From positions 64,001 through 128,000 of IMG/VR virus record IMGVR_UViG_3300037067_018912: DNA of 64,000 nt; one strand, given 5' to 3'. A program made the position numbers and the translations under genes. The stretch comes from a virus. Lineage: Duplodnaviria; Caudoviricetes. The notes under the pieces are model-generated. The model ran no database searches. It saw nothing but the letters and a program-made list of their open reading frames with translations, and had not been told where the DNA came from. This document shows positions 14,934 through 64,000 of the stretch, piece after piece (positions within the stretch are counted from its first letter, which is position 1; every line of letters starts with the position of its first letter).

Positions 14934-15680
14934 TTAAAAATCAACTGCGAAAACAATCGTTCTTGAAATGCTTGAATTCTTTGGGACGGGGTTGTTCAAC
15001 TTACCAATAGCCACAAGGTTCTTTTCGCTATCATACAATCCTATTTCTGTAATATACACCGGAGACGCACTGTCCCACGTCGGATTCGTTGTCGAATTAA
15101 ATTGATTGAGTGGTAGATTTATTGCCAAATCCATTGTATAAGCGATCGCTTTGGCATCGGCAGACACATTTCCAATGAAATATTGTTCTTCTCCAAATGA
15201 AAGCGCATCAGGTGCTGTTTTTTCGGGATAATCAAGATATTCAAGATTGTAAATCGGCATCTCAACAATATTATTGTACTTGTAGATCGGGACTTTAAAG
15301 ATGCTTCCACACAAGTATTCTGAGGTCAACAATTGTCCAACGGTAAATCCTGTATAATAATCCTCAATTTGGTTAGTCACGTCGTATTTTCTCCAATTGG
15401 AAGCAATCGGTTTCACGTCATTAAGGCTGCTGTATGCGTTGTTGTTTATCAGTTGAACGAGCACATAAATTTTGTTTACAGTATATCCAGTACCACCGTT
15501 AAAACCTGCCGCCAAAAACTTGAAATCGTCAACATCATTGAAATAAATGTTGACTTCCTTGTTAACGACAGTCTCCAAAGGGAGGCTATTGATATAGTTG
15601 CAATGAATTGCTGTGCTATATCCATTGCCGGGGGTCGTCTCCAACAGGTAACTGAAAAATACTGTGTATCCGTTCGCCAT
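14934..15680 (-). CDS. tail/baseplate structural protein with the C-terminal half of a tail-collar (DUF3751-like) domain
   Basis: YITEIGLYDSEKNLVAIGKLNNPVPK. Confidence 0.65.
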   Translation of the reverse strand: MANGYTVFFSYLLETTPGNGYSTAIHCNYINSLPLETVVNKEVNIYFNDVDDFKFLAAGFNGGTGYTVNKIYVLVQLINNNAYSSLNDVKPIASNWRKYDVTNQIEDYYTGFTVGQLLTSEYLCGSIFKVPIYKYNNIVEMPIYNLEYLDYPEKTAPDALSFGEEQYFIGNVSADAKAIAYTMDLAINLPLNQFNSTTNPTWDSASPVYITEIGLYDSEKNLVAIGKLNNPVPKNSSISRTIVFAVDF

Positions 15681-15687
15681 AGTATGT

Positions 15688-16427: not shown

Positions 16428-16440
16428 TTATTCAATTCTA

Positions 16441-17688
16441 TTATTCTATTGAAGGAACTGTCCCTCCACCTGTTGTTGGAGCAGCACCGCTTACATATGA
16501 AGTTTCATTCGTCCTTTTCGTTGTTGATGTGGTGCGTGTCACATCTTCACTTCCACTCACTGCATGGATACAAACACATCCTTTTGTTGCAAAATAATGA
16601 GTCAAATCAGAACCAACTGTGACATATGATTTACTCCAAAATACATAATTGGAAAGAGCGGATTTTGTTATGTTGTTCAACACCAACGAACCATTCTGTG
16701 AAACGATATGTGTCCCACTGGAAGAAAGTGCAGTTGCTTTAGTGGTTTTTGTTGCCCCTTGATAATAATATGCACAAGAATAAACCGCCCTGAGTGTATT
16801 TTGGGTGTCCGTATTCGCAATAAAATTAATCGTCACATCAAAAGTTTCCGCATCCGATAAATAACCATCAAGAGCCAAACATGAACTGCGAGTCCATTCT
16901 ATTCCACCACTATCTCCGTCCAACGGGTCCATCGTATTCGTCAAGGTTTTAAAACAAAGTATTGCAGGTCCAAGAGTTGGAGGTGCTGCCGTTGTTGTTG
17001 GTGCAACATAATTAAGATTCGATTCCTTGCAATATGTGCTCTGAACAGGTGCACAAGATAATGTAAACGTCCCCGTATTAGCCGTAAGTCCTGCGACTTT
17101 TATTCTCGCATATCCGCTTCCTTCGAGTGCGCTTGTCTGCAATGATGTGCTCAGACTCCATGTTATTGCATCTCCATAATTAACTGTTTTTGTAATGTAT
17201 GTAATGGGATTGCAAGAATTGTTAGCATTGAGATACTGCCCAAAACTTACGTTTGTGCCACCACATGTCGCACAATTAAATGAGACACTATTGTTTGTGT
17301 TATTCGTATTGCACGTGACAAGGCATAATTTAACATCATAACTTTCACCAGGTTGCAGATTTGGACTTGTGCAAAGGCACGTGTTTCTGTATGCACAAGA
17401 TTTTACACTTGGCATATATCCCTCACCAACCAACATAATAGTCTTTGGAGTGGCCAAATCCGGTATGTAATGTGCCGGAGTTGAACGTGTACAACCGCTA
17501 ACATTTCCAATTTGGTCTGTCACTTTCACACAATATGAAGTGTTCGGTAACAACGAACTGATCGTCACACAAGTACCAGAATAGTCGATTCCTTTTTGGT
17601 AATCGTATGAACAAGCACCAACCGCTTTGCAGACCTGAATGAGAAACGGTGGTTTATCTCCACATATCTTGAATTTAATTTCCGCCAT
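16441..17688 (-). CDS. Cys-rich virion protein (FN3-like plus beta-sandwich repeats)
   Basis: LLPNTSYCVKV FN3-like motif; 21 Cys in 415 aa (manual count). Confidence 0.65.
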   Translation of the reverse strand: MAEIKFKICGDKPPFLIQVCKAVGACSYDYQKGIDYSGTCVTISSLLPNTSYCVKVTDQIGNVSGCTRSTPAHYIPDLATPKTIMLVGEGYMPSVKSCAYRNTCLCTSPNLQPGESYDVKLCLVTCNTNNTNNSVSFNCATCGGTNVSFGQYLNANNSCNPITYITKTVNYGDAITWSLSTSLQTSALEGSGYARIKVAGLTANTGTFTLSCAPVQSTYCKESNLNYVAPTTTAAPPTLGPAILCFKTLTNTMDPLDGDSGGIEWTRSSCLALDGYLSDAETFDVTINFIANTDTQNTLRAVYSCAYYYQGATKTTKATALSSSGTHIVSQNGSLVLNNITKSALSNYVFWSKSYVTVGSDLTHYFATKGCVCIHAVSGSEDVTRTTSTTKRTNETSYVSGAAPTTGGGTVPSIE

Positions 17689-17690
17689 AA

Positions 17691-19916
17691 TTAACTGATT
17701 GTTACCGTATTACTATAATTTCTTTGTTCTATTATTATATTGTCTTTCCTCACCCTCATCGAAATTTTATACACTCCATCCTCGGTGACAGGTATGTATG
17801 TCGTGGACATTCCATTAGCACTCACCCAATTCAATGGAACTGAATTGGATTTGTATACACTGATTTCAACGGCAGCGTAACCAGTTAAGAGTGCATACAT
17901 TGGCATGGTCATGTAGTTGCTTACCGAGATATATGTGCCCATGTAACCCGATGTGTATGATGTGGTGATTGTCGTATTCAACAATGGCGTCGGTATTGCT
18001 ATATAATCCTTCTGTACATAGAGATATGGTGTGGATGTACCTTTATCACGAATATAAATCGTATACTTAGCCTTCGGCGTCGATGGCAGAGTGATAATAT
18101 TCGATGTCTGCCATGCAGGATCACTTAACAGCGGATATGTTCCGACCGGATACGTCCCATAAGGTTTGGCAATGAAATATGGTGTTAATCCATATGGATC
18201 ACCATAACCGCTTATTGTTATTCTATATTGATTACCACTTGTCGGAGCAATCGTGAAATTAGAATTCATTATGTTACTTGTACCTGTCACGTCGTATAAA
18301 CTTAATATGCTTGTCGGATCGGAAAGTGTCACAATTGTTGTCGGACAACCGAGTGCCCCTAAGTCATAAACTGTCACATAATACGTGCCTTCAGTCAAGC
18401 CAGTGATTTTAATACTAATATTTGGGTTGGCTATTGGTTCGAAATAAATCATACCTGTTGCACCAGTAACACTGAGTATGAGTTGACTTCCCGGAATATT
18501 ACCGTCGATGTCATAAATCATCAACCAACCGTTCGAACCACCAATCACTGTTGGACTGACTGTCTGTACATTAAATGTAATTGTACATGGAGCACAACCG
18601 ACAATGACACTATCATTAACGCCAACAGTATAATCCGGGAGAGTCCACGACCTATTGGACTTGTATGACATGGCAAACAATAACTCTTGGTCTTCAATAA
18701 CGAAAATCTTCAAATTATTGAACACTTTTCCCACTATATTACCATCCTCATCGGCCAAATCATAATAAGAGGTGGTTAGACCGGACAAGGATTTGACTGA
18801 TCCTGTAGCACTCAATTTCAACCCCAATGTGGCTTCCGATTTTTTATGCCACATTATTGTCGGAAGATAGATTTGTGGTAATTTAGCGGGGTCGTTCATT
18901 CCGAATTCCTCTGCATATGTATTTGAAGGAGAGGAATTGGTGTAATGAATCACCCCCAATTTTTTATAAACAGGTGATTGTCCTTGAATATATGAAACAA
19001 AACCACCGTATATCCGTGAATCGAAATTCACATATTTTGTGTCACCTGATTGAACTCCGGCAATTTCATCCGTAAAAATTATTGATAGATTCCAAAACGG
19101 AAATGTCACCGTAGGGCATTGACAATTCTCCAAGAACGCCAAGACGCTTTCGTTGACGAAATCGGTCGAATATTGATTGAACGCTGTGTTTCCAGAGAAA
19201 TTAACATAATTGTAGAATACGAGAGCACCTGCTGTAATACCTGTTGCACCACTCGTCATTCCACTGAAATTCGGTAATTCCCGATCAACAATAGCGGTTA
19301 AATTATTTGTTGAAAGTTTTCCGGAAACATCAACAATTTTATACATCAAGAATGGCTTTGGATCGTATTGTGAAGTCCATATTCCGCTTGTATCACCACC
19401 ATAAGTGGTAGTCCATTTAATCAACAAATAATCCCCCGGTTCGGGTTCATTGACATTTGCAAGGTATTGTGGGGATTTACGTAATGCGAGAGTTGTTCCA
19501 CCAGTAACATTTGAAATCAACACCATTACATCCGGTTGTTTGATATGGTCAGTATCTGTTATGAAAGAAAAACTATTGCCACTTATGTTGAAAAAACCAA
19601 GAGTTTGAACTGTGTTTACAACGGGTGTTACCGTTACAGGAATGCTTGAGATTTCATTATACTCGCTATCTGTCGTACTTTTCTTGATGAAGGATAAAAG
19701 ACTCGGATTCTTGTCCGCAGGTCTCAGTATTTGTGAATAAAACGGCGTGTATTCATCATCCACGGCTTCCACTTCGGAATTGAATTGATAATCCATTTCG
19801 CTATCACCAATGGCGAAGTATTTGAAATCCAACAATCCTCTGGACAGTTGCTCCCTGCCTTTCGAAGTCAGTTTGATATTTAAAACTACTGGGTCTTTTT
19901 TATCGATGAAAGCCAT
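17691..19916 (-). CDS. tail/baseplate structural protein with the N-terminal half of a tail-collar-like domain and Ig/SprB-like C-terminus
   Basis: LTSKGREQL..YFAIGD; GLTEGTYYVTVYD. Confidence 0.7.
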   Translation of the reverse strand: MAFIDKKDPVVLNIKLTSKGREQLSRGLLDFKYFAIGDSEMDYQFNSEVEAVDDEYTPFYSQILRPADKNPSLLSFIKKSTTDSEYNEISSIPVTVTPVVNTVQTLGFFNISGNSFSFITDTDHIKQPDVMVLISNVTGGTTLALRKSPQYLANVNEPEPGDYLLIKWTTTYGGDTSGIWTSQYDPKPFLMYKIVDVSGKLSTNNLTAIVDRELPNFSGMTSGATGITAGALVFYNYVNFSGNTAFNQYSTDFVNESVLAFLENCQCPTVTFPFWNLSIIFTDEIAGVQSGDTKYVNFDSRIYGGFVSYIQGQSPVYKKLGVIHYTNSSPSNTYAEEFGMNDPAKLPQIYLPTIMWHKKSEATLGLKLSATGSVKSLSGLTTSYYDLADEDGNIVGKVFNNLKIFVIEDQELLFAMSYKSNRSWTLPDYTVGVNDSVIVGCAPCTITFNVQTVSPTVIGGSNGWLMIYDIDGNIPGSQLILSVTGATGMIYFEPIANPNISIKITGLTEGTYYVTVYDLGALGCPTTIVTLSDPTSILSLYDVTGTSNIMNSNFTIAPTSGNQYRITISGYGDPYGLTPYFIAKPYGTYPVGTYPLLSDPAWQTSNIITLPSTPKAKYTIYIRDKGTSTPYLYVQKDYIAIPTPLLNTTITTSYTSGYMGTYISVSNYMTMPMYALLTGYAAVEISVYKSNSVPLNWVSANGMSTTYIPVTEDGVYKISMRVRKDNIIIEQRNYSNTVTIS

Positions 19917-19954: not shown

Positions 19955-22261
19955 TTATGGTCTGCATACATATTTTTTATAACACGTTCCAGGTATCACC
20001 GGGGTAATATCAGGACTTGCTGACAAACTTTGAATACAAAGATCAGCGCACGTACCATTGCTCATGGTATTTAAAACACCAATATAATAGCACAAACAAT
20101 CGTTGGTACACATTCTAATTGTACCGCTATAACTACTTGGATGTGGTCCACCGCTTGCACTTGTTAATGTATGTGTGCATTTCAATGTGAACGTACCGCA
20201 CACACCACCCTTACAATAGATTTTAACGAATGCAGTTCCGGCATTGATAAGAAGTAACGATCCTCCATAAGAAACATCAATACTCTGATATGTCGTCGTC
20301 ATTGCCGGAAGAACGCAGAAGCAACCTGTGTCATATTTGTAACCATCAAGATCAACACCTCCATAGATTCCATGCAGACATACCGTCCTTGAAACAGGTG
20401 TGGTACTTAAACAACGACAATTCGAGCATTTTGTGATGGTAGGATTTATCGACGGATCGACACCAATACTACCAATGATGGTGGTCAAACATACGTGACT
20501 GCACGAACCATTATTACCATAAGCACTGTTAGCAAACTGTATTGTATCACCGTAATTAATAATCATTGACCCGGTAAATGCATCATTATTTGTTTCCCCG
20601 ATAGCCGATGAAGTGGTGTGGGTTGCTTTATTGACAAATGACGACCCACCATTCGGCTTACAGGTAAACTGCAACGTACTTGTTCCACCCCAAACCGAGG
20701 CTTGTGTTAGATTATAATTTATTGTGACGTATTGTCCTGTTGCCAACGCAGGAGTGATTGTGAGCGTACCACTTCCGCCGTTTGTACCACCCGCAGTTTC
20801 ACAAAGTGCTGCAACCGTAGCCACTTTCGGCACGGTGACCGCTCTGCAAACACAATTTTCAGCCGCCACCGGACTGACTGATGGAACAAGACCAATAGAA
20901 CCTCCCACAGTTCCTAATGAGAGTTCAGCACAAGAACAATAACCCGCACCGGGTGCACTTAATGCAATACAATATTTCACCGAATCACCATACCTCATGG
21001 TGATAGTTTTTGTTGTGGGTGAAGAAGAATTGAAAACATCAACCACAACATGATCAGCAACACAGCAAGCACCACTTCTACAAAGTATCGTAGTTGTCGA
21101 TGTACCACCACCGGACGCCGGATTTACTCCAAACAAATTAATATCCAAACATTCTCCTGAAGGTAATGGTTGACTCAACATGATTGAACCACACGTTACA
21201 CACTGCGTTGGTGACGATACAACAGATGTTGGAGTTCCAAGACAAATTGTGACATCTTGCGTTGGATTATATGCATTAAGCGTTACAAAACAATTCGTGA
21301 TATCTATTGTCGGTTGGAACGTCCTATGACCGTCAGCATCCGTTAAACAGAAACTGGAAATTGCTTCAGAACCCAAGTTTCCATATATCGTCCGAAGTTC
21401 ATAACACATGACATCCCCCTGTCCAAATGAAAGATTAACCAATTTTTCTTCATTTGGGTTGACGATTGAACAATATGTTTGAGTAGTTGAATTGCATCTG
21501 AAAATAACGCACGATACTGCTGCTGTTCCAACTGTTGTAGCATTTGCAAGAAGATTGACTGTCACACACTCCCCAACAATAAGGTTCGGAGTTACACACA
21601 CTTTACCAGTCTTATACGACACACCTCCACAAGTCACCACGCCCGCATACTGTCCGGTCAACACCAATTTAACACTTTTTGGTGCTAAAGTCGGTGTAGT
21701 ACTTGCAAGTAACAGGTACATATCGATTATTTTCGATTTTTTGAACAATTCAGCACCATTATAAAAATCACGAATTTGAAAACTATATGTCTTACTGTAA
21801 TCCAAACCCAAGAATGTGGCATTACTTTGCCATCCAGAATCATATGTTGTTCCAGACACCCTGTATTGTAATTCACCATTGGCTTGGCCTGCATTTACAA
21901 TCCTTGCACCATTGTCAAGGAATTTATATGCGAAGAAATCATCATTCAACATATCGTGTTCGAACGGATATCCAGGATTATAATAACTTGCTTCGTTAAA
22001 TAGGTTCTCTTTAGTTATTTCACTCTCAATCTGTTGAGTATCAAGGAAATCAATTACCCTCCTGTCAAAATCGATCTTCGATATTGCTTTCAAATCAGAG
22101 CATGTCAAAGCCACATAACTTTGAGATGTCACCGGATTGGTGTCACATGTAATCGTGAACGGGTTCATCAGGTTGCGGCATACGATTGCACTATAATTGG
22201 TGCTGATCCCGCTGCTGATCACCTCACTTAATTTAAGTATGTATTTCCTTGCATTATCCAT
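19955..22261 (-). CDS. Cys-rich virion protein with four ~140-aa beta-sandwich repeats
   Basis: 44 Cys in 768 aa (manual count); repeating PxLxxGExxxVN and xYGDxxxY motifs. Confidence 0.7.
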   Translation of the reverse strand: MDNARKYILKLSEVISSGISTNYSAIVCRNLMNPFTITCDTNPVTSQSYVALTCSDLKAISKIDFDRRVIDFLDTQQIESEITKENLFNEASYYNPGYPFEHDMLNDDFFAYKFLDNGARIVNAGQANGELQYRVSGTTYDSGWQSNATFLGLDYSKTYSFQIRDFYNGAELFKKSKIIDMYLLLASTTPTLAPKSVKLVLTGQYAGVVTCGGVSYKTGKVCVTPNLIVGECVTVNLLANATTVGTAAVSCVIFRCNSTTQTYCSIVNPNEEKLVNLSFGQGDVMCYELRTIYGNLGSEAISSFCLTDADGHRTFQPTIDITNCFVTLNAYNPTQDVTICLGTPTSVVSSPTQCVTCGSIMLSQPLPSGECLDINLFGVNPASGGGTSTTTILCRSGACCVADHVVVDVFNSSSPTTKTITMRYGDSVKYCIALSAPGAGYCSCAELSLGTVGGSIGLVPSVSPVAAENCVCRAVTVPKVATVAALCETAGGTNGGSGTLTITPALATGQYVTINYNLTQASVWGGTSTLQFTCKPNGGSSFVNKATHTTSSAIGETNNDAFTGSMIINYGDTIQFANSAYGNNGSCSHVCLTTIIGSIGVDPSINPTITKCSNCRCLSTTPVSRTVCLHGIYGGVDLDGYKYDTGCFCVLPAMTTTYQSIDVSYGGSLLLINAGTAFVKIYCKGGVCGTFTLKCTHTLTSASGGPHPSSYSGTIRMCTNDCLCYYIGVLNTMSNGTCADLCIQSLSASPDITPVIPGTCYKKYVCRP

Positions 22262-22263
22262 GA

Positions 22264-23178
22264 TTAAAACAATATATTGGCAAATGTCTTCTCAGTTTCT
22301 TTAATTTCTTTCACATAATTGAACCCACAATACTTGTTACTGCATTCAATCTCTTTATTGAACGGCGATTTTTGATAATTGGTCTTCAAAAAATAAATAC
22401 CGTTATTCAACACCGCACCCGCATTATGAAAAAGATGCGTTTCTTCCCATCTTTTCATAGGATCAGTCGCCCAAGAAAAATTCAATCTTTTAGTTATTTT
22501 TGTTTTATGCCCGGCACGCCATGCATTCCATAACAACGCCCACATGTCCGCAGTCCAAGCCTGTATCGGGTTCTCCGAGTTGTATTTATACGATGTGGCA
22601 ATCATATGACTGAACAAGTTTTCGCTATCGTTTTCAACCTTTTTCCAAAAATCTGCATCAACGTTTTTCATCAAATATTGCGCACCCCCGGCATTTTCAT
22701 CATTCATCTCGACCACTTTCGGGTCTATACCGACAATCTCACACATTTCCATGAACAATCCCTCACCCTTGCTCTTAATATATTTGCTGTCAATATATGA
22801 ACGAGTATCGCTCAAATACCAAACATCGTCTTTTTCAAGATCGCTCGTTTTTAGTTTCTTTGTGAATATCACGTCAGGGTCAATGTAAAATATTGGTTCA
22901 TTCTCCAATTCGGGATGCTTCTCGAAGAACTTGGAAATAATATGCGGCCTCATCGATGATGAATATTGCGGACTTGTCCTTGTATCATTCAACACATGAA
23001 ATTGAGCATTCACATTGCCACTTAAAATTCTCATAAGAGTTGCACTCGGCTCGCAAGTTCGCTTGCCAATGAGATAAATAACATCCTTTTCCAAACCAAA
23101 TTTTTTGAAATTATTGATTTGGACAAGCATCTGCCACAAAAAATAACTGTTATCCGGTAACGCAACCAATATTTTCAT
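22264..23178 (-). CDS. glycosyltransferase resembling plant peptide O-glycosyltransferases HPAT/SGT1 (GT95/GT96-like)
   Basis: YFLWQ, YSSSMRP, YIDPDVIF (DxD), AGGAQYLM, WTADMWA motifs in family order. Confidence 0.65.
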   Translation of the reverse strand: MKILVALPDNSYFLWQMLVQINNFKKFGLEKDVIYLIGKRTCEPSATLMRILSGNVNAQFHVLNDTRTSPQYSSSMRPHIISKFFEKHPELENEPIFYIDPDVIFTKKLKTSDLEKDDVWYLSDTRSYIDSKYIKSKGEGLFMEMCEIVGIDPKVVEMNDENAGGAQYLMKNVDADFWKKVENDSENLFSHMIATSYKYNSENPIQAWTADMWALLWNAWRAGHKTKITKRLNFSWATDPMKRWEETHLFHNAGAVLNNGIYFLKTNYQKSPFNKEIECSNKYCGFNYVKEIKETEKTFANILF

Positions 23179-27659: not shown

Positions 27660-27663
27660 ATTC

Positions 27664-52953: not shown

Positions 52954-53256
52954 TCATCCCGTCGGGGCGATAAAGACAGATTGATAATCAGTGACATCTT
53001 GGGTGTTGGTATCACCCGTGTCGGGATAATAAGTTAGATTATCGGGAACAATATAAATTGATTGATAATCAGTGATATCCTGCGTATTGGTGTCCCCGGT
53101 GTCAAAATAATACGACGTCCCTGTCGCAGGAGTGATAAAAACCAATTGATAATCGGTCACATCCTGTGTGTTGGTATCACCCGTATCGAAATAATACGCC
53201 GTATTGGTCGGAGTGACTCCCGAAATGTAAACGTCCGTTATATCTTGCGTGTTCAT
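52954..53256 (-). CDS. Asp/Thr-rich tandem-repeat small protein
   Basis: three full copies of YY[FP]DTGDTNTQD[VI]TDYQ plus a partial N-terminal copy. Confidence 0.75.
   Translation of the reverse strand: MNTQDITDVYISGVTPTNTAYYFDTGDTNTQDVTDYQLVFITPATGTSYYFDTGDTNTQDITDYQSIYIVPDNLTYYPDTGDTNTQDVTDYQSVFIAPTG
52981..53256. repeat. coding tandem repeat, 81-84 nt period
   Basis: 42-nt cores at 52981-53022, 53062-53103 and 53146-53187 differing mainly at synonymous sites. Confidence 0.8.
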
Positions 53257-54074: not shown

Positions 54075-55136
54075 TTATAATACTTTAAGTAACGTCATAT
54101 ACCTGTTAGTGTTTGCGGTTGCAGTACCACTTGCTGTTCTCCATCTTATTTCAACATTTTGTGCTGTTGCCAATGTGATCCTGAAATTTGAATAACCATG
54201 ATTTGCCGTAACTGCTTGCGTTCCTCTCATGAATGTTAATTCACTGTTGGAAACTAAATTACCTCCAACATATATCGATGTTGTTGTAGCCACACTACTT
54301 GTACCATGCGATAATGATGTTCCAAAACTAACCAAATATGTTCCTGCGGGTACGTTTGTAAATTGCATGCCCGTCATTAATACAGCAGTTGTTGATGTTG
54401 TGGTTATGTTGCCAGTAACACCTGTATGATATGTTGTTATTATAGCACCACCCACTGCAATTGGCTGTGTATTATCTCCCCAACCCGCAACCAAAACTCC
54501 GTCTTTATTAACACCCACTATATAGTAAGGAACTGTAGTACCAGTTGTTGCACCAGTTGGATTAAGTATAACCAAACCAGCGATGTTACCACCACCAAGT
54601 CCACTGTCTTGATTTACACGTATCTGCATTTGATTTGCTTCCTGTTTAACCCTTCGAATTGTTTCAATCCAAAGTTTACCTTCAATGCGTAAATCTCCCC
54701 AAAATGTTCCACTACTTCCCGATATATTCTCAACAGTCAAATCGGTGGTAGTACCACCAGTGGTTGCCATTTTACTATCCGTGACACCAGTAAGAGCATT
54801 TGGTGTCGATATACTGCTTAAAATCAGATTACCATCAATATTAGTCATACTGTTTAAACCAACAGTCGCATAACCCTCCAATATTTTAAACTGCTCTGGC
54901 GTCGGAATATTCGGTATTAATTTAAGAATTTCAGTTTTTATTGCTTCTACACTCAACACAGAACCAGCAAAAGAATCCCAATTATTCACAGAAGATATGT
55001 CCGTATAATCTGCAGGGATGCCATCACCATCCCCGATTGCAATAAATGCAGTATTCCCGCTCAACATAATGTTGTTCCATGCCTTGATATCCACACCTAA
55101 TTTTTGTCCGTTGATTGTATATGCTAATAGTTTCAT
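54075..55136 (-). CDS. tail fibre-associated protein with a C-terminal beta-sandwich (BclA/C1q-like)
   Basis: T/G-rich; PAGTYLVSFG..VEIRWRT. Confidence 0.6.
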   Translation of the reverse strand: MKLLAYTINGQKLGVDIKAWNNIMLSGNTAFIAIGDGDGIPADYTDISSVNNWDSFAGSVLSVEAIKTEILKLIPNIPTPEQFKILEGYATVGLNSMTNIDGNLILSSISTPNALTGVTDSKMATTGGTTTDLTVENISGSSGTFWGDLRIEGKLWIETIRRVKQEANQMQIRVNQDSGLGGGNIAGLVILNPTGATTGTTVPYYIVGVNKDGVLVAGWGDNTQPIAVGGAIITTYHTGVTGNITTTSTTAVLMTGMQFTNVPAGTYLVSFGTSLSHGTSSVATTTSIYVGGNLVSNSELTFMRGTQAVTANHGYSNFRITLATAQNVEIRWRTASGTATANTNRYMTLLKVL

Positions 55137-55152: not shown

Positions 55153-58100
55153 TTAACAAATCTTTTTCACCCTAATTGTTGCACAACATATCGTACCATT
55201 GGTGCTTTGTGTGCAGAAATAGAAATTAAAGCAATGGCTTCCCGCAGAAAGTGTCAAATCTTTCGTGAATTGATCTGCACGGTAATAACCGATCATATTA
55301 CACCCACCAAGTGTTGCTACCGGAGTTCCATCAACATTATATGTCACATAAATATATCTATTACCCGTAGAATTTGCAAATATTGACATCATATCCATCT
55401 GATACCTTCCCGCAGTAAAAGTTGAAGCAGTATACCCATAATAATATGTTGGTGTTGTTGTTGCAATTGTACATACCGTATTGGTTTCAGCATAATGGTA
55501 ATTATCACTGCCGCCAGTCAATAAGATTGCTTTGACTTGCTTATCAGTAGGATTCCAAAATAATGTACGATCAGTTGAAATACTACCTATTGAAGGTGTT
55601 GAAACAAGACAAAGCGTATTTCCAACTGTGGTAACACCACTCGCATTAAATGTTGAAGCAGCAGTTGTTGCACCAACCAATCTTGTTGTACCTACCGAAC
55701 ACAAACATGTGCTGCCATAAACCGTCGAACCCGATACCAAACCTGCGGCAAGGAAGTCTCCGCTTGTTCTTAACGTACCTGTCATTGTGTCGCCACTCAC
55801 ATTCACCTTCGTTAAATCACGAGGATGGACGTGATCTTGACGGCTGTACCTCAATGATGTACCCACTACCGTCAATCCATTCATCAATGGTGTCGCCGTA
55901 CCCGCTTGGCCAACGACAAACGCCGTTGTTGCAAACTGAGTCGTATTGGTATCGGCTACCGCCGTCAAACCATACACAGCACCTGTGAACGTATCCCCCG
56001 TCAAATCGGCCTTACCATCAAGGATTGTCTTCGTGACACCCGTGTAAGTATTGAATTGTGTTCTTCCAATATAATTAGCCGGAAGTGTTGTGCCTGTGAA
56101 CGTGGCAAATGCCGTCTTATCGAGTTTTGTCCCTATTAAAGTGTTTGTAACACCCGTATAGGCATTGATTTCAGTCTTATTATAATAGTTCGCCGGAACT
56201 GTCGTTCCAGAATAGGTATTAAAATCACTTACCGCAAGTCTGCTTGTATCGCTCGGATGAACATGATCTTGACGACTGTATTTTAACGACGTGCCGACTG
56301 CTGCCAATCCGTTCATCAACGGTATTGCTGTTCCAACCTGGCAAGAAGTAATAAATGCTGTTGTTGCAATACAAGTGTTGTTTGAATCCGCAACAGGTGT
56401 TGGAGCACATGCACTCGTCAAAAACGTTGGACTTGTAATCGGTGCTTTCGTATCAATCAAAGACTTTGTCGCCGCACTATAAACATTGATTTCAGTCTTG
56501 TTATAATAGTTTGCCGGAACTGTTGTACCGCTGTAAGTATTGAACGCACTTATGTCGAGTTTCGTCCCTATAAGAGTGTTTGTAGCACCCGTATAGGCAT
56601 TGATTTCAGTCTTGTTATAATAATTCGCCGGAACTGTTGTACCGCTATAAGTGTTGAATGCACTTACCGCAAGTCTGCTTGTATCACTCGGATGAACATG
56701 ATCCTGACGTGCATATCTCAACGATGTCCCAATAGCCACCGCACCGTTCATCAAAGGATTGGTGTTGGCAGCCTGGCCGAGAACGAACGCCGTTGTTGCA
56801 ACCCTTGTAGTGTTGGTATCGGCGGGAGCGGTGGTTGTGTAGATCGCCCCCGTGAAAGTATCCCCCGTCAAATCGGCCTTGCCATCAAGTGCCGTCTTTG
56901 TAACACCAGTATAAACATTGAAATTGCCAATGTTCACATATGTTGCAGGTGCTGTCGTCCCAGTGTATGTTACAAACACCGTGGTTGGCAGTTTGGCATC
57001 TATCGAGGTCTTCGTCGTACCACTGTAAGAATTAAAATTGACGATCTTTAAATAGGTCGCAGGGATTGTCGTGCCCGAATAGGTGTTGAATGCGGTTATC
57101 GACAATTTGGTATTCGTAACCCCCGAAATATAATCAATATCACCATCAATACCATTCAGTCTCGTATTTGTCGCACCACTGTAAGAATTAAAATTAGTGA
57201 TAGCCAGATAAGTCGCCGGGACTGTCGTACCTGAATAAGTATTAAATGCAGTTATACTGAGTTTCAATGCATCCGCATCGTCGACATATTTCTTATCAAC
57301 AAGATCGGTGGTTGTTGTGAATGTTGGATGGGATTGGTAATGTTGTATGCCCGTCAAATTCCTCGTACCATCAGTCCTCAGATATTGCGGATGATCGTCA
57401 TTCAAAAGGCCGCTTAAATCACCGTGGTTCGAAATACCACCACCACCACCAACCTGACCACCTATCTGATAAGAGAATGGCAATGGCCTGATATCATATA
57501 TCTCACCACCGAATGTTGTTGATCCTGCCGAATACACCACATATGCCATGTTTATCGCAGTAGTGTCAAACGGCGGCACTTTGCCTGGCAGACCTCCTGC
57601 TATTGCTTCCTCCTTAGTGCTGTAGTACGTCTGTGGCAAATAGAATGCCAATTGACCGCTCGTTGTTCTAAGCACGATCGCCTTCACCCATTTCCCGGAA
57701 GGTATGTTCTTCGTTGCTAAACTGACAACCGCCGTGTGACCCGTGCCCCCTGCACCAAAATACGGTATTGCCAAGGTCAATGTAGTCCCCGTGCCATCCC
57801 ATGTATGACCAGTGACAAGTGTCTCATATTGATATGGTGCAACACCATCGAAAGCATCGTATATGCGGAAGGTATCGCCTGTCGGCAGCACGCTTCTCAC
57901 ATCATCAGGACTTGTAACGATATTGCTGCCATATGTAAAATTGAAAGTATATGCGGTCAATATCAATCCCGATGGTTGGGTAGGATCGTTGTAATATGTG
58001 GTAGGGATGCTCGCATCCCCCGTATAGAATGACTTGTTAATATAATAAAAATCAGCATTAACTCCTTGATCAGGACTATTGTATGCAACAAGCGTCGTCA

Positions 58101-61100
58101 ATCCACTGATGTCAGCAAGAGTAGTACCAACTTGTGGCAAATCGACCGACATCAACCCCATCTGTATCTTGCATGGGGTACTGGTAATCATTGTTGTATT
58201 AGCACTTAATTGTTGAATGCTACCGCCATTATCGTATATGAAAATCCCAAGCCTTTTCAAATATTCGGAAGTCCTGGAAACCGCATTCTCAATAACACCA
58301 CCATCTTGTTTAATGTTACCGATTTGCACCGCCCAATAGAACGTACCTAATCTAATATTTTGAATGTTATTCGGCTCGGATATTGCCACCTGTATATCAC
58401 CATTAGAATTTACGTAGACATAGTAAGTCCCAACATCGTCCGGTGTGGTATATCCACTGGTATTGATTGTTTGACCGCTCCAAGTTATTAATTTGTGAAA
58501 TCCATCGTATGTAATATATCCATTACCAGGATAAATATACAGCAAATTCAAGTCAATTTGTGCAAGTGCCGTTTCAGGTGAAAGCCTGCCGGAGATTTGC
58601 GTTCTTTCAATATAATTAGCGACTTTTTGGTTAAAATCATCAACAGTCGTGCTTTCCCAATCGGGAATACTGATATTAACATCAATTGCATTACGTGTTG
58701 CAAGATCAGCCAATGAACTACCGACCTTACTTACTTTCGTCCAAGGTATTGTGCCCCCGGTGTATGCTGCAAACACCGCCGTTGGAAGTTTGGTGTCGGT
58801 GACACCGGAAATGTAATCAATATCGTCTTCAACACCATCAAGTCTTGTCTCTGTTGAAGCGGTGTAATTTACAAATGTTGCGATTTCTACATGTTCTATG
58901 TTCGTACCACCAGAATCCAAAATAAATTGGTATAGATTGTAACCATTTATTGAAGTACCTGTTGGTATTACAGGAGTTCCCGTGAACATGGGACTTTCAA
59001 GGAAGGCGAATGTTTTCCTCGTGCTTCCTGTCGTAGTGCCGTACCAATTATTACCGAGAAATTCCATTGCTCCCGGTTGTGGTGAACCCAACAACGATCC
59101 GCTTGTGAATTTCAACGGGGAAACAGTTGTTGTACCTGCTTTTAGGTGAACCACCGCCGTCGGTGAAGAAATTCCAAATCCTGTTCCAAGGTCTGAAATC
59201 CTGACCTTTTCCGTTGGAGCAGAACCACTTGATGTCTTGAACAACATATCTGCATAACAAGTCGTGCTGTTGCCTTTGTATATTACGTCAAGCGATGCCA
59301 ACGACGTGCCGACCGTCCCACCGCCACAGCACACCCTTGTTCTGAAGCATAAATGACCAAGAGAATCACCCGAACAGGAAGCCAATGGCGCATCCAATGT
59401 TCCTCTTGTTTTTGCAGCCACATACCCGCCACCAATAGCATCGTTGGACGACGCTCTCACTCTTATTTGGGCGGTAGCACTACAATTAGAATCGACTTCG
59501 AATAAACTGAAACTCTGACCTGCTGTCAAATCGACATAATTCGATTCATTCACCTGCAATTGATTGCATCCAGACATGTTACCGCCGCCGATGTTAGTCC
59601 TGCCGAGACTGTCGATGTAGAAATTCGGTCTTGCATCGAATTGTGAAGAATATACTCCAAACCTCTTATCACCGCCACGGACAACCGTATTTAAAGTTGG
59701 TATCACCGACGGCAGGCTTGACGTCCTCATCCTCACCCAATATAATTCCTTTTGTTGAAGTTCATCAGGCAGCACTGATAATATCCAATCATTTATTTGG
59801 GTATTATCCCAATAGATCGCACCCGATCTTGTCAAATCTACCGTTGAATCGTAATAATAATCACTTCCTTCCGTGATCTCGACCCAAGACGAACCATCGA
59901 AATATTCGATGATTAATATAGTATCCTGACTTGGAATTATTATATTGATTTGAACTGAATTGAATTTAGTGTATCCACCTATATACAATGCCCCCAACGT
60001 ATCCCCAGTGTTAAATATTTGAATAGGGTAGTTGGAATCCGACAGACTCGCCCTAACGGTGAGGTCTTCATACCCAATCACACCCGCCGTATAATCGGAA
60101 GTTTTTAAAATAGCATCAAACTGAGCGGGTGCTACAATCAACGTACCTGATGGAAGTTGAGGGAATGCATTGAAACTCCAAGTATCACCGGAAGTGTGCC
60201 CTGTTGTGTAATCAAATTTGACCTGCACACCATTCTCAATAAGAGTTAAACCTGTCGAACACCCGGTTGGTTGAGACCAACTGTTGAAAGTGACTCCCAA
60301 ATCCTTAGAAACCCTCCAAACGAATGTATCGGTCGTTCCCGTTACACCCGATATTCGGATTTCATAATTGGAGATAAATGTCTTATCATATATACCGTCG
60401 ACATACAGGTCGTTAAGTCCTGTGCCGATTATTTTGTTGGCATAGAATGAAAAATAATTCGACGGCGAGTTTACCCCGACCCTTCCACTCTCGGAAGCCA
60501 CGATTGGCGTCGTATTGCCCGCCATGTTGTATAAGTACCAAAATTCAGCATTCTCACCCCTAAATGTTTCTGCAAACCATTTTGGTTCACCATTTTCAAG
60601 CCACACCACATCCTTGTCAGCACCCGTAGGACCATCAACATTCAAACCATTGGCCTGTGTGTTGTAACCACCATCATCAAGTAAATCAGTTCCATAAAGA
60701 TGAATTTGTTTTACCGGATTAGTAATACCAATTCCAGTAAAACCACTTATGGTATTGATCGTTATGATTGGTGTGATACCATCCGCCTTATTAATCGTTA
60801 TTGCGGACGCTGTCCCCCCAAACGGCCTGATCTCATTGACCACAATACCACCATTGAAACTGCTTTCAACAGTCGTTGAAGCACCCACTTCCGTGACCTC
60901 TTGCAAATCCGGAACGGTGATATCGCAAGTATATGCGAATTCCCGCCTCGTGCCGCCAGTCGTCGTACCATAAAACTTGTCCCCTTGAAACTCTACAGCA
61001 CCTGATTCGGGTGTCGCCAGCAACAACCCGCTCGTGAATTTCAACGGAGCGGTGTTGGCTGCAGTTGTACCTGATTGCAAATGAACAAGTGCTGTTGGAA

Positions 61101-64000
61101 CAATTCCTCCAAAGCCAACACCTGCACCGCTCACCCTTATCTTTTCGACTTGGACAAGGTTTTGACCATTTGCCACTGCGAAGCGCAAATCACCATAATA
61201 CGTGCTGCCGTCACCGATATATTTTGAAATTATTTTTGCTGTGACAAAACCACAACCGTTTATAGGAGAACCCCATGTTATACAACCCATGTTGTCATCA
61301 TATTGGGGATTGACTGCACCGCTCAAAGTACCTCTTGATTTCGTCAGCAAAAGTGCCGGACCACAAGCATCATCACTTGCCTGTCTCAATTTGAGTAAAA
61401 GTGCAATACTACTATCCTCGTTGTCGAATTCCACAAGGCTTGAAGCACCTGAATATACTTGATAATTCTTGTTAGTATTTACTTGCAGTACATTACGACC
61501 CGTAAGATTACCACCACCTATGCTCGTCCTTCCCAAGGCATCAACATAGAATGATGGTCTGTAATCCATTGCTGACGCATACACTGCAAACCTCATGTTG
61601 CTGCCACGGGATACCCCGCCGATCAAAGGCGTTACCGTAGATGGACTTGCCGTCCTGATTCTTACCCAATAATACTCCCCTTCTCCCGGCATTTCCAAAG
61701 GCTCTGCATACGTCCAATTCGTCAAAGCATTCGTGTTCCAAGTCAAATATCCGGTTTGAGTTAAATTATTGGTAGTATCATTAAAATAACCGCTACTTGT
61801 GCCGATGTTTTCCCACGAATTTCCATCCCAATACTCTCCGACAAGGGTTATTCCTTCGCCCCCCTGAATGACATTAATAAACAATGAATTGAGTTTCGTG
61901 TTTGTGCCAATATACGCAGCATTTGTCGTTACACCCGTCTCAAACATCGGAGTTGGGACATCCACAACTGAAGTATTCACTTCAGCAGTGAAATCGGAAA
62001 ACGTCACCGCACTTGCAGTATAATCCAAAGTAGCCAATACCTTATTAACCCGGTTTCCGGTCACAGTAAACGTGGAAGGTGCTAATTGAGGAAACGTTGC
62101 GAACCTCCAAGCATCACCAACAACAAATCCGGTGATTTGGACGAATGACACCTCAACTCCACTATCAATTATTGTTGCACCTGTCGTACAACCTGTCGGT
62201 GTCGACCAAGCGGTATATGTGTTATTCAAATCACTGGACACCCTCCATTGATAAGTATCTGTTACACCAGTAGTGCTGTCGATCCTCACCTCGTAAATAG
62301 CGATGTAACTCTTGTCATACAACCCGCCGATCACAAGTCCATTATTATATGGCGTGCTGCCGACAGATTGAGCAGGATAATCGATTATATTCGACGGACT
62401 GTTAACACCAATTCTGCCACTTTCTGAAATAGTGAGTGGTGACAAATCACCCTCACTATTATACAAATACCAAAATTTTCCTTCTTCACCCCTGTAAATC
62501 TCGGCAAACCATTTCTCAGCACCATCGTCCCGCCATACAACATCCTTGTCGCCATCAGCAACACCATCAATGATAATACCGTTTTTATGTGTTGAAATAT
62601 AACTACCATTGGAATTATCAACCCCGTATATGTGAATGATATTGTCGGGTTCAACCGTTCCAAACCCGGTCAAACCACTTGTTGTGTTGATTGTTATAAT
62701 CGGCGTGACACCATCGGCTTTGTTAATTGTTATAGCCGATGCAGTTCCTCCAGACGGCCTGATCTCATTAACAACAAGACCCCCATTAAAACATGTTTCA
62801 ACGGTTGTCACCGCCCCTATCTCAGTAACTGTTTGCAAATTAATTGCATTGGTATCACACATGAAAGCGAATCTCTGCCTTGTACCGCCAGTCGTAGTCC
62901 CATAAAATTTCTCACCTTGGAACTCTACAGCACCCGCTTGGGGTGTTGTTAATAATGTCCCACTCGTGAACTTCAAAGGGGCGTTGGTTGTAGTGCCGGA
63001 CTTCAAATGAACAAGTGCCGTTGGTGTTGAAACCCCAAACCCAGTATCACCTTTATAGTCAATTCTAACCCTTTCCAACGGATCAGAGCCGTTTGCTGTT
63101 TTAAAGAAAATATCACCACATCTTGCTGTCGGAGCACCTGTGAATTGCGAATTGATCTCCGCCAACAGGCGTCCTGATGTCCCAGACCTGCCCCTGAAAC
63201 TGATGCGTCCGAGAAGGTCGCCCGTTTGCGTGCAGGATGATGCATCAAGCGTGCCACGGGTCTTGACAAACGTCAACCCTGGAGCACATGCGTCGTTCGA
63301 TGCAAGTTTTATTTTCAGATCAACAACGTTGCTGTCCTCGCTGTCGAATTCAACAAGACTGTCAGTGCCTGTGGTAGTCACTTGGACATTATTCCCAGTG
63401 TTGACTTGCAATTTATTGCTTCCTGTGATATTCCCGCCGCCGACGTTTATCCTCCCCAACGCATCCACATAAAATGCAGGTTTGTAATCGAACGCCGAAG
63501 CATATATCGAGAATCTTTGAGAACTACCTCTGGAAACACTACCAATATACGGTGCTATTGTTGGAGGACTTGACGTCCTAAATCTCAACCAATATAACAA
63601 TTCACCGCTGTTCCTCCCATCATAAGGAATCCACCCTGTCATTGTATCGACGTTCCATGTGATCGCACCAGATTGGGACACATTGTTCGTGCCGTCAAGG
63701 AAAAATTCATTCCCAATTGAAATGTCGACCCATGAAGTGCCGTTCCAATATTCAACAACCAATGTCATTCCGACACCGGGGGTTGGAATATTAAGAAACA
63801 ATGAATTAAGTTTCGTCACAGTACCAACGTATGCGGCGTTCAAGGTTGTCCCTGTTTGGAATAATTGAAGTGGAGAATCTATAGTTGATGAGTTCGCAAC
63901 CCCCGTTATATCAACACCCACAATGTATTGTGGTGGATATGTTGTGTAATTAGTGGTGTATATCACCCTGTCCACACGGTTTCCAGTGACGGACAACGTC
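55153..64000 (-). CDS. giant tail fibre/adhesin, >2,947 aa, start lies beyond the window
   Basis: frame is open past 63996; GxGxxxPxxxLH fibre motifs, ~642-aa repeats, FNTYSGTT and RQDHVHP repeats. Confidence 0.85.
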   Translation of the reverse strand, partial: TLSVTGNRVDRVIYTTNYTTYPPQYIVGVDITGVANSSTIDSPLQLFQTGTTLNAAYVGTVTKLNSLFLNIPTPGVGMTLVVEYWNGTSWVDISIGNEFFLDGTNNVSQSGAITWNVDTMTGWIPYDGRNSGELLYWLRFRTSSPPTIAPYIGSVSRGSSQRFSIYASAFDYKPAFYVDALGRINVGGGNITGSNKLQVNTGNNVQVTTTGTDSLVEFDSEDSNVVDLKIKLASNDACAPGLTFVKTRGTLDASSCTQTGDLLGRISFRGRSGTSGRLLAEINSQFTGAPTARCGDIFFKTANGSDPLERVRIDYKGDTGFGVSTPTALVHLKSGTTTNAPLKFTSGTLLTTPQAGAVEFQGEKFYGTTTGGTRQRFAFMCDTNAINLQTVTEIGAVTTVETCFNGGLVVNEIRPSGGTASAITINKADGVTPIITINTTSGLTGFGTVEPDNIIHIYGVDNSNGSYISTHKNGIIIDGVADGDKDVVWRDDGAEKWFAEIYRGEEGKFWYLYNSEGDLSPLTISESGRIGVNSPSNIIDYPAQSVGSTPYNNGLVIGGLYDKSYIAIYEVRIDSTTGVTDTYQWRVSSDLNNTYTAWSTPTGCTTGATIIDSGVEVSFVQITGFVVGDAWRFATFPQLAPSTFTVTGNRVNKVLATLDYTASAVTFSDFTAEVNTSVVDVPTPMFETGVTTNAAYIGTNTKLNSLFINVIQGGEGITLVGEYWDGNSWENIGTSSGYFNDTTNNLTQTGYLTWNTNALTNWTYAEPLEMPGEGEYYWVRIRTASPSTVTPLIGGVSRGSNMRFAVYASAMDYRPSFYVDALGRTSIGGGNLTGRNVLQVNTNKNYQVYSGASSLVEFDNEDSSIALLLKLRQASDDACGPALLLTKSRGTLSGAVNPQYDDNMGCITWGSPINGCGFVTAKIISKYIGDGSTYYGDLRFAVANGQNLVQVEKIRVSGAGVGFGGIVPTALVHLQSGTTAANTAPLKFTSGLLLATPESGAVEFQGDKFYGTTTGGTRREFAYTCDITVPDLQEVTEVGASTTVESSFNGGIVVNEIRPFGGTASAITINKADGITPIITINTISGFTGIGITNPVKQIHLYGTDLLDDGGYNTQANGLNVDGPTGADKDVVWLENGEPKWFAETFRGENAEFWYLYNMAGNTTPIVASESGRVGVNSPSNYFSFYANKIIGTGLNDLYVDGIYDKTFISNYEIRISGVTGTTDTFVWRVSKDLGVTFNSWSQPTGCSTGLTLIENGVQVKFDYTTGHTSGDTWSFNAFPQLPSGTLIVAPAQFDAILKTSDYTAGVIGYEDLTVRASLSDSNYPIQIFNTGDTLGALYIGGYTKFNSVQINIIIPSQDTILIIEYFDGSSWVEITEGSDYYYDSTVDLTRSGAIYWDNTQINDWILSVLPDELQQKELYWVRMRTSSLPSVIPTLNTVVRGGDKRFGVYSSQFDARPNFYIDSLGRTNIGGGNMSGCNQLQVNESNYVDLTAGQSFSLFEVDSNCSATAQIRVRASSNDAIGGGYVAAKTRGTLDAPLASCSGDSLGHLCFRTRVCCGGGTVGTSLASLDVIYKGNSTTCYADMLFKTSSGSAPTEKVRISDLGTGFGISSPTAVVHLKAGTTTVSPLKFTSGSLLGSPQPGAMEFLGNNWYGTTTGSTRKTFAFLESPMFTGTPVIPTGTSINGYNLYQFILDSGGTNIEHVEIATFVNYTASTETRLDGVEDDIDYISGVTDTKLPTAVFAAYTGGTIPWTKVSKVGSSLADLATRNAIDVNISIPDWESTTVDDFNQKVANYIERTQISGRLSPETALAQIDLNLLYIYPGNGYITYDGFHKLITWSGQTINTSGYTTPDDVGTYYVYVNSNGDIQVAISEPNNIQNIRLGTFYWAVQIGNIKQDGGVIENAVSRTSEYLKRLGIFIYDNGGSIQQLSANTTMITSTPCKIQMGLMSVDLPQVGTTLADISGLTTLVAYNSPDQGVNADFYYINKSFYTGDASIPTTYYNDPTQPSGLILTAYTFNFTYGSNIVTSPDDVRSVLPTGDTFRIYDAFDGVAPYQYETLVTGHTWDGTGTTLTLAIPYFGAGGTGHTAVVSLATKNIPSGKWVKAIVLRTTSGQLAFYLPQTYYSTKEEAIAGGLPGKVPPFDTTAINMAYVVYSAGSTTFGGEIYDIRPLPFSYQIGGQVGGGGGISNHGDLSGLLNDDHPQYLRTDGTRNLTGIQHYQSHPTFTTTTDLVDKKYVDDADALKLSITAFNTYSGTTVPATYLAITNFNSYSGATNTRLNGIDGDIDYISGVTNTKLSITAFNTYSGTTIPATYLKIVNFNSYSGTTKTSIDAKLPTTVFVTYTGTTAPATYVNIGNFNVYTGVTKTALDGKADLTGDTFTGAIYTTTAPADTNTTRVATTAFVLGQAANTNPLMNGAVAIGTSLRYARQDHVHPSDTSRLAVSAFNTYSGTTVPANYYNKTEINAYTGATNTLIGTKLDISAFNTYSGTTVPANYYNKTEINVYSAATKSLIDTKAPITSPTFLTSACAPTPVADSNNTCIATTAFITSCQVGTAIPLMNGLAAVGTSLKYSRQDHVHPSDTSRLAVSDFNTYSGTTVPANYYNKTEINAYTGVTNTLIGTKLDKTAFATFTGTTLPANYIGRTQFNTYTGVTKTILDGKADLTGDTFTGAVYGLTAVADTNTTQFATTAFVVGQAGTATPLMNGLTVVGTSLRYSRQDHVHPRDLTKVNVSGDTMTGTLRTSGDFLAAGLVSGSTVYGSTCLCSVGTTRLVGATTAASTFNASGVTTVGNTLCLVSTPSIGSISTDRTLFWNPTDKQVKAILLTGGSDNYHYAETNTVCTIATTTPTYYYGYTASTFTAGRYQMDMMSIFANSTGNRYIYVTYNVDGTPVATLGGCNMIGYYRADQFTKDLTLSAGSHCFNFYFCTQSTNGTICCATIRVKKIC
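55820..57270. repeat. short coding repeats in the fibre stalk
   Basis: 56141-56274 and 56576-56709 are near-identical (435 nt offset); KADLTGDTFTGA x2; RQDHVHP x3. Confidence 0.8.
58990..64000. repeat. ~1,926-1,929 nt (642-643 aa) tandem domain repeats in the fibre, about 2.6 copies visible
   Basis: equivalent positions at 63993, 62067 and 60138. Confidence 0.8.

Follow-up and report, generated by a model that had tools for sequence, protein, structure and literature searches.

What keeps one four-residue motif, [ST]-G-x-T (Ser or Thr, Gly, any residue, Thr), recurring across unrelated structural proteins of a jumbo phage? The question is raised by a stretch of 64,000 nucleotides (hereafter the window), which comprises bases 64,001–128,000 of the 357,275-bp virus record IMGVR_UViG_3300037067_018912, a record with direct terminal repeats. 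The window has a GC content of about 0.40 and nearly all of its genes lie on the minus strand. The phage belongs to a group of uncultured jumbo phages of about 330–370 kb and no named phage is close to it, the best match of the window's DNA polymerase being 24% identity to Salinibacter phages. A first-pass annotation, made from the sequence alone, had proposed that the motif is the recognition site of a phage-encoded modifying enzyme, most simply one of the glycosyltransferases (GTs) encoded nearby. Here we describe the excess of the motif, its residue signature and its distribution, and weigh what might maintain it.

Open reading frames (ORFs) were called with a simple longest-ORF rule; completion denotes [ST]GxT as a fraction of [ST]G dipeptides, and O/E the observed over the expected count. 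The first-pass tallies (48 motifs in the giant fibre and 10, 9, 6, 4 and 3 in five other structural proteins, but no more than 2 in the polymerase and a single one in the Mre11-Rad50-like protein; Table 1) were all matched by script, which also bore out the completion of 40–50% of the [ST]G dipeptides and found the chain SGMTSGATGIT at residues 218–228 of the 741-aa protein (17691–19916). The range to which the feature had been assigned, 14934–64000, is too narrow, as the contiguous motif-rich fibre block extends to genome coordinate 155,537, about window coordinate 91,500. Over the whole genome 310 motifs are present where 83 are expected, mainly in about 19 ORFs, while the remaining 375 ORFs have an O/E of 1.1–1.4. 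In the fibre and baseplate proteins of this phage and its relatives, the density of the motif is about 4–6 times chance.

The excess stays after composition-preserving shuffling (z-scores of 7.5, 7.6 and 12.5) and after BLAST-based masking of every later copy of a repeat, with 20 motifs against 4.4 expected in the giant fibre, 9 against 1.2 in the 741-aa protein and 10 against 1.45 in the 1231-aa protein (23181–26876). Internal repeats are thus ruled out as its cause in the latter two proteins and in the non-repetitive regions of the fibre; the motif count of the 100-aa protein (52954–53256) is due mostly to such repeats. Shuffling inside blocks of 12, 20 or 40 residues likewise leaves the excess in place, and since it survives in blocks as short as 12 residues it reflects residue order and not patches rich in Ser, Thr and Gly, so that patchy local composition is also ruled out. 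In an unbiased scan of the masked set, covering five shapes of 8000 patterns each (about 40,000 gapped tripeptides), TGxT ranked first (p = 4e-11) and SGxT second (p = 1e-9). Motif sites draw on the full set of Ser, Thr and Gly codons, a diversity which rules out a DNA-level signal and indicates selection at the protein level.

In agreement with the first-pass annotation, the motif-bearing proteins are not homologous: BLAST similarity between them is limited to one 48-residue stretch, and hhalign gives a probability below 1% between the three families that could be aligned, which rules out cryptic homology between these families as the cause. Pfam, PHROGs and PDB sequence searches gave no match for the motif-rich proteins. 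The full ORF of the giant fibre encodes 3332 aa, reaches window coordinate 65151 and consists largely of internal repeats, three of about 640 aa together with 18–20-aa Y-[ST]-G-x-T units. Among 15 homologues of the 1231-aa protein there are about ten conserved motif columns and many singletons, and homologues of the two small proteins at 14934–16427 are often richer in relatives (6/8 in locus L010, 4/4 in L005).

The signature reads, in order, a hydrophobic or aromatic residue at −1, Ser or Thr, Gly, x and Thr. SGxT reaches an O/E of 6.4–7.4 and TGxT of 4.5, whereas NGxT and DGxT stay at about 1 (0.7–1.2) in the window's genome and in the family of the 741-aa protein, and other residues at position 1 mostly at 0.3–1.7. 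Gly is needed at position 2, and Ser at position 4 is raised about twofold after Ser-Gly and about onefold, that is not at all, after Thr-Gly. At position x, Pro occurs in 0 of 262 sites (P = 1.7e-4) and Arg likewise never; at −1, Trp is enriched 4.3-fold, Tyr 2.3-fold and Ile 2.0-fold, while Asp is disfavoured (0.5-fold). The family samples are phylogenetically related, and p-values from pooled counts, here and below, overstate independence. A second, independent fibre family (120 proteins) shows a completion of 46% against 13% expected, with an O/E of 4.9 for Ser and 5.4 for Thr at position 1, only Thr at position 4, and an NGxT O/E of 2.6. The fibre-family homologues are all on phage-sized contigs and none is evidently cellular. 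When the signature was examined as an ST/Asx turn, Asn and Asp proved to be the main position-1 alternatives in conserved columns of the 741-aa family; yet NGxT and DGxT are not in excess in that family, in the second fibre family NGxT being the one that is raised.

The location of the motif was assessed on an AlphaFold2 (AF2) model of one motif-rich protein, the 741-aa protein, which was built from 115 sequences and is confident for residues 1–420. The suggestion that the sites map to loops held on this model: each of the eight motifs within the DSSP-mapped residues 1–492 has its first residue in coil or turn, and six of the eight belong to the confident part, location being taken from the DSSP class. 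Motif 138–141 lies between strands 127–133 and 142–147, motif 378–381 between strands 364–376 and 383–388, and motif 484–487 between strands 481–484 and 489–492, while three motifs form the 11-residue SGMTSGATGIT chain, which runs into a strand. The predicted geometries are mixed and include tight strand connections, longer coils and one disordered loop. A Foldseek search of the model against the PDB gave no meaningful match, the fold of the N-terminal domain being without a recognisable PDB counterpart.

In order to follow the motif through evolution, we used the 741-aa family, for which 356 cluster representatives were available. Its N-terminal domain of about 430 residues is conserved (residues 1–430 of the window protein, with the sequence motifs GDSEIDY, IHYTN, PTIMWH and SYKSNRNWTLP), while the C-terminus is variable. 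The motif O/E of about 5 is held down to 30% identity. Concomitantly, individual positions turn over: no alignment column has the motif in over 33% of the family, and 53% of instances fall in columns less than 5% occupied, some of which is loop alignment noise; motif sites also lie in more variable, gappier columns (conservation of 0.36, against 0.49 on average). An N-terminal domain holds between 0 and 10 motifs, and the 17 of 122 homologues with none do not form one clade. At the best-conserved turn these zero-motif homologues keep the Gly and read Asn, Asp or Lys at position 4 (SGGN, SGEN, TGTN), and Thr is therefore not needed for the fold; IMG/VR relatives of one such protein, P0050, were sought and none was found. 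GC content does not correlate with richness (rho = 0.08), which rules out GC or mutational bias. Altogether, it is the number of motifs per protein, and not a fixed position, that appears to be under selection, which points to a trans-acting reader.

The excess is also restricted to this lineage. It is absent from T4 gp34 (0/18) and gp12 (1/6), lambda J (2/13) and P2 H (0/8), as well as from T4 gp7, gp10 and lambda Stf, and T4 gp37 is only mildly raised. Among large phages, whole-genome completion is 0.117 in the marine cyanomyovirus P-SSM2, which has fibre-like ORFs of up to 5195 aa, 0.099 in the 'hairy' jumbo phage CBB and 0.093 in Chryseobacterium phage MA9V-3 (expected 0.07–0.09), compared to 0.243, 0.234 and 0.156 for three genomes of the present group, this phage among them. 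These comparisons rule out a generic property of fibres. Within each genome of the group completion is bimodal, large ORFs lying either near 0% or at 40–85%. The idea of a trait that is on or off genome-wide, prompted by the zero-motif contexts of loci L031–L033, was dropped, since genome G006 combines a motif-poor baseplate module with six strongly enriched fibre ORFs.

Known sequence elements that could give rise to the motif account for few of the sites. Of the 310, only 2 stand in a collagen-like GxxGxxG context (a motif spacing of 3 was seen 3 times), 4 in the classic fibre box S-G-D-T-[MF]-T-G and 11 in T-G-H-T-H His-x-His boxes, about 17 sites together, so that neither collagen-like G-x-T nor these boxes are the main source. 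T4 gp36 and gp37 contain such a fibre box without a general excess, and the sole ORF of the P-SSM2 genome with a TGxT excess is a 559-aa protein with long (G-P-T)n collagen-like runs (NC_006883, 25115–26794, plus strand). None of the known sequon types tested is enriched: [AG]NT.T is rare (6 instances), and the Bacteroidota pattern D-(S/T)-(A/I/L/V/M/T) is depleted in the motif-rich ORFs (O/E 0.75), as is Asp at −1. The features on which the argument bears are collected in Table 1.

Table 1. Motif-bearing proteins, candidate enzymes and comparison proteins (window coordinates unless marked as genome; fractions are [ST]GxT over [ST]G)
Feature	Position	Strand	Observation
Mre11-Rad50-like protein	4697–8074		1 motif
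Two small motif-bearing virion proteins	14934–16427	−	248 aa, 2/2; 243 aa, 2/5
741-aa motif-rich protein	17691–19916	−	9/19; no internal repeats
304-aa GT-A-fold glycosyltransferase (predicted), phrog_4417	22264–23178	−	AF2 and Foldseek; annotated 'unknown function', 77 named phage records
1231-aa baseplate/fibre protein	23181–26876	−	10/25; internal repeat is a single 48-residue stretch
Two paralogous GT2 glycosyltransferases	26934–28389	−	248 and 241 aa, 56% identical; Pfam PF00535 E = 7.5e-15 and 4.4e-11
196-aa baseplate-module protein	29770–30360	−	3/7; alone marginal (P ~0.01–0.1)
460-aa protein, weak GT-B-like C-terminal domain	35226–36608	−	PF13524 E = 0.0033, below family cut-off
Family-B polymerase	46706–50404		2/15
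100-aa repeat protein	52954–53256	−	4 motifs; 27–28-aa repeats, each with D-TGDT-NTQD
353-aa motif-rich virion protein	54075–55136	−	6/12; masked 5 against 1.3 expected, shuffle P = 0.005
Giant fibre protein	55153–64000	−	48/102 in the window part; cut by window edge
664-aa fibre protein	genome 129,159–131,153 (L022 10159–12153)	−	34 motifs in one ORF
Sugar-nucleotide/glycan-assembly cluster	genome 173,025–185,644 (L116 3025–15644; window coordinates ~109,000–121,600, beyond the window)		

The simplest proposal, that the motif is the sequon of a neighbouring GT, draws on the position of the GT2 pair and of the GT-A gene inside the baseplate/fibre operon, between motif-rich proteins. The GT2 pair was followed through 98 related loci, of which 19 are syntenic IMG/VR relatives and 79 belong to the wider family. 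Among the syntenic loci it was found in the two closest alone, L003 and L018 (2/19), and in the wider ones not at all (0/79). The excess persists without it: at least 13 syntenic relatives that lack the pair at that position are still enriched, L010 showing 15/19 and 7/11. The GT-A gene, by contrast, is present in all syntenic relatives; motif completion in neighbouring proteins is 0.28 whether the gene is there or not (p = 0.73), and the motif-rich loci L034–L036 have no GT-A in their flanks by BLAST. The first-pass annotation had also suggested testing whether phages without the GTs lack the enrichment. The excess remains without the GT2 pair or the GT-A, while every complete relative has GT2 genes elsewhere and no truly GT-free relative was found among them. 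Together with the cultured lineages described below, which carry the GT-A without any excess of the motif, these data make it very improbable that either neighbouring GT is the cognate enzyme, despite the confident fold and conservation of the GT-A.

Candidates of other kinds lie further away. The 460-aa protein at 35226–36608 has homologues in L007, L014 and L019 and no PDB sequence match. The cluster at 173–186 kb encodes a PfkB kinase, a Polysacc_synt_2 4,6-dehydratase (PF02719; E = 7e-98), an RmlD-like reductase, a UDP-GlcNAc 2-epimerase (E = 8e-90), two methyltransferases and six GT2-type enzymes. We take the trio of dehydratase, reductase and epimerase to resemble pathways for 6-deoxy-N-acetylhexosamines (6-deoxy-HexNAc), and the gene content suggests that the phage may make a methylated, 6-deoxy-HexNAc-containing glycan.

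The GT-A gene itself turned out to follow a different feature. Sequence profiles missed its fold: PF23452 was hit in 1 of 15 members at E = 0.35, with no other hits and no PDB profile hit, and identity with the plant HPAT/SGT1 peptide O-glycosyltransferases is therefore not supported by sequence. The AF2 model has a mean predicted local distance difference test score of 93.4 (pLDDT) and a predicted template modelling score (pTM) of 0.91, and Foldseek returned 310 PDB hits at E<=1e-3 with probability 1.00. Template modelling (TM) scores are 0.43–0.53 to GT6, GT8 and GT24 enzymes; the top structural matches are the GT6 enzymes GTA/GTB, the GT8 enzyme LgtC, the catalytic domain of UGGT and XXYLT1, and the best are retaining GT6/GT8/GT24 enzymes. 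D100-x-D102 (in FFYxDPDVxF) is invariant in 15 homologues of 33–74% identity. By its predicted structure, the product of 22264–23178 is thus a GT-A-fold glycosyltransferase. A tandem duplicate of the gene occurs in a 363-kb relative (L017 9040–9975 and 9968–10903, plus strand; 33% and 41% identity to the window copy).

What accompanies this gene is poly-Thr. In the jumbo family, runs of at least 8 Thr are found in 11 of 16 loci that carry the GT-A, as against 1 of 54 that lack it (Fisher p = 2e-8). Homologues of window proteins in relatives have Thr runs of up to 28 and one mucin-like region of 100 residues; in the 1231-aa protein itself, a YPxTTTTTT..P linker around residue 1060 is conserved. 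In Enterococcus phage phiFL1A, Clostridium phage phiCTP1 and Lactobacillus phage iLp84 the gene adjoins head/capsid and tail-tube proteins that end in poly-Thr tails, and in Chryseobacterium phage MA9V-3 the two ORFs just upstream of it have 23–30 Ser/Thr in 30 residues, as internal poly-Thr linkers. All four of these cultured lineages thus have poly-Thr (4/4) and none has an excess of [ST]GxT. The gene lies at 9001–9909 in L027, 14980–15885 in L028, 7001–7909 in L029 and 6801–7679 in L030. The phrog_4417 GT-A is likely a virion O-glycosyltransferase for mucin-like Thr tracts, a putative assignment that has a parallel in mycobacteriophages, where capsid and tail-tube subunits are reported to be O-glycosylated on C-terminal extensions rich in Ser/Thr (Freeman et al. 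2023, as cited in PMC12619734). In both cases a phage GT in or near the structural module is placed to act on virion proteins, the GT-A here standing beside poly-Thr proteins; the mycobacteriophage acceptor is a low-complexity Ser/Thr-rich tail, which matches the poly-Thr and not a tetrapeptide in a loop. A motif-poor 312-kb relative has at L032 3646–4512 (plus strand) a 288-aa homologue of the 29770–30360 protein which is 35% Thr and has no Ser/Thr run of 4 or more, the Thr being spread in some alternating pattern.

Once the neighbouring GTs are set aside, the question is whether the motif is read at all. The signature is absent from the fibres of other phages and dispensable in homologous folds, and a universal physical preference is hence insufficient: some lineage-specific upkeep is required. 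A trans-acting reader is favoured because of the enzyme-like specificity, the exclusion of Pro, the loops, the density maintained with moving positions, the restriction to the distal virion and the GT-rich genomes. We therefore favour, tentatively and with less than even confidence, the reading of [ST]GxT as a recognition element for a trans-acting factor, probably serving O-glycosylation by an enzyme encoded elsewhere. This is the general idea of the first-pass annotation, which came through the tests run on composition, repeats, GC, ancestry and loops; what failed is the assignment to a neighbouring GT. As we picture it, hydrophobic-[ST]-G-x-T, with x never Pro or Arg, would be a short linear element in exposed loops and strand-to-strand turns of fibre and baseplate-periphery proteins. 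Its reader would be a putative cytoplasmic, phage-encoded O-glycosyltransferase, which would act on the Ser/Thr of position 1 (or on the Thr at +3) either ahead of virion assembly or while it proceeds. The gene for this enzyme would lie elsewhere in the genome, for example in the 173–186-kb cluster, and would be neither the adjacent GT2 pair nor the adjacent GT-A. In a fuller version, which we advance with slightly more reserve, [ST]-G-{P}-T at strand ends could be the acceptor sequon of a cytoplasmic O-glycosylation system, encoded by the phage, that coats its many fibres with glycans made by its own sugar-nucleotide/GT cluster, beside a second system in which the GT-A acts on poly-Thr linkers. 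Several observations weigh against a modifying reader. Among the candidate enzymes tested none co-varies with the motif, the GT2 pair being dispensable and the GT-A uncorrelated, and PF02719 and PF00535 hits (dehydratase presence and GT2 number) do not separate the poorer G006 from the rich genomes. Two Ser/Thr/Gly-rich virion proteins of the same phage have no motif excess (19955–22261, 1/14; 16441–17688, 1/9), and a literature search for the motif string found, among the papers covered, no O-glycosylation sequon of [ST]GxT form. Finally, the hydrophobic −1, the near-invariant Gly and a Thr that opens the next strand are also expected of a pure strand-turn-strand element, and Thr instead of Ser at position 4 suits a beta-branched structural role.

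These last points lead to a second reading, only slightly less likely than the favoured one and on a par with its fuller version, namely that the motif is a lineage-specific loop idiom of the beta-rich fibre and baseplate proteins, unread and unmodified, which closes one strand and starts the next through a cap resembling an ST turn, a positive-phi Gly and, to open the new strand, a beta-branched Thr, and which spreads as new loops copy existing ones. It accommodates the strand-loop-strand junctions of the model (138–141, 378–381 and 484–487), the Trp, Tyr and Ile preference at −1, the Gly that is nearly invariant at conserved columns where Asn and Asp alternate at position 1, the strand-start preference for Thr over Ser and the fixed place of the motif inside the 18–20-aa fibre repeats; a few copies are indeed known fibre boxes (GDT[MF]TG, TGHTH), and no unseen enzyme is required. 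Turn physics is universal, though, and no excess is seen in T4, lambda, P2, P-SSM2, CBB or MA9V-3; homologous domains with zero motifs exist, the motif proteins are non-homologous, the local geometry is uneven (hairpins, longer coils, a disordered loop and the 11-residue tandem chain), and neither of the classic turn formers, NGxT and DGxT, is in excess in this phage's genome or in the 741-aa family, even if NGxT is raised in the second fibre family. It is unlikely, by comparison, that the motif is some other functional surface element, concerned with binding of host polysaccharide, reading by an assembly chaperone or resistance to host protease, with the host or the assembly machinery as the selective agent. 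The confinement of the motif to distal, host-facing virion proteins, its lineage restriction, its conserved density with positional turnover and the phage-sized contigs of all fibre-family homologues would fit; the literature search found no precedent for such a binding or chaperone motif, and the motif also occurs in the conserved, virion-proximal N-terminal domain of the 741-aa family and not at tips alone.

Known systems offer partial parallels to O-glycosylation at [ST]GxT. In the chlorovirus PBCV-1, the major capsid protein is modified at the atypical N-glycosylation sequon (A/G)-N-T-x-T by virus-encoded cytosolic glycosyltransferases, as established by mass spectrometry and structure. 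The likeness lies in the many GT genes of the virus, the short non-canonical motif ending in x-T and the targets on the virion surface; there, however, the glycan is N-linked to Asn on a capsid, whereas here the motif, known from its sequence, has no Asn and lies in fibres. The AIDA-I and TibA autotransporters have beta-helix serines heptosylated by the cytoplasmic BAHT/TibC family, GT9-like enzymes that form iron-containing dodecamers. This too is cytoplasmic O-glycosylation of many Ser in short inter-strand loops of a repetitive fibrous adhesin, with a sequon that is largely structural context; the enzyme family differs, and the substrate is one repeat family instead of many non-homologous proteins. 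In Bacillus BclA, Thr residues of the collagen-like region bear O-linked glycans, and collagen-like G-x-T of this type, as in the 559-aa P-SSM2 protein, also yields T-G-x-T strings; it needs uninterrupted G-x-y triplets, while the sites described here are hardly ever embedded in such runs and SGxT matches TGxT in enrichment. The general O-glycosylation system of Bacteroidota, with its D-(S/T)-(A/I/L/V/M/T) sequon, is periplasmic, and its pattern is rarer than expected among the motif-rich proteins. A comparable group of aquatic jumbo phages, the 'moraphages', has core GT families and predicted Bacteroidota hosts (PMC12619734); a possible affiliation of this phage with that group is a lead only.

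Other genes identified in the window are a gp25-like baseplate wedge (32221–32619), the family-B DNA polymerase, an SNF2 helicase, the two GT2 genes and a 1507-aa polyvalent protein (37962–42485, minus strand). The latter combines ART-PolyVal (ADP-ribosyltransferase) and GNAT acetyltransferase domains with a poly(A) polymerase/CCA-adding head and a HAD 'Swiss Army Knife' RNA-repair domain. Between the homologues of 29770–30360 and 29321–29767, loci L008 (3906–4790) and L009 (2926–3783), both on the plus strand, carry a DUF6734 gene (E = 1e-20 and 3e-14), a slot which is empty in the window. Beyond the window, the 664-aa fibre protein mixes collagen-like G-x-y, SLTGHTHSQY His-x-His repeats and beta repeats of about 30 aa (FTGYTFIxSGGTxI); tblastn against named phages gave no match for it.

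Glycosylation of phage virion proteins is, to our knowledge, known from very few systems, none of which we found to have a defined sequence motif; if [ST]GxT is an O-glycosylation sequon, it would be the first that we know of to be defined for a bacteriophage. A motif that recurs in loops of dozens of non-homologous fibre proteins within one phage group, and is absent from other phages, would represent a modification code that can be read or else a novel structural grammar confined to one lineage. If the sequon reading is true, uncultured giant phages could have their glycosylation sites, and with these their glycan shields or host-binding sites, predicted from sequence, metagenomic sequence included. 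The by-product, the widespread gene phrog_4417, is possibly of more immediate use, since it offers a specific candidate enzyme for O-glycosylation of virions in cultured phages of Enterococcus, Lactobacillus, Clostridium and Chryseobacterium, some of which are of interest for therapy or dairy fermentation.

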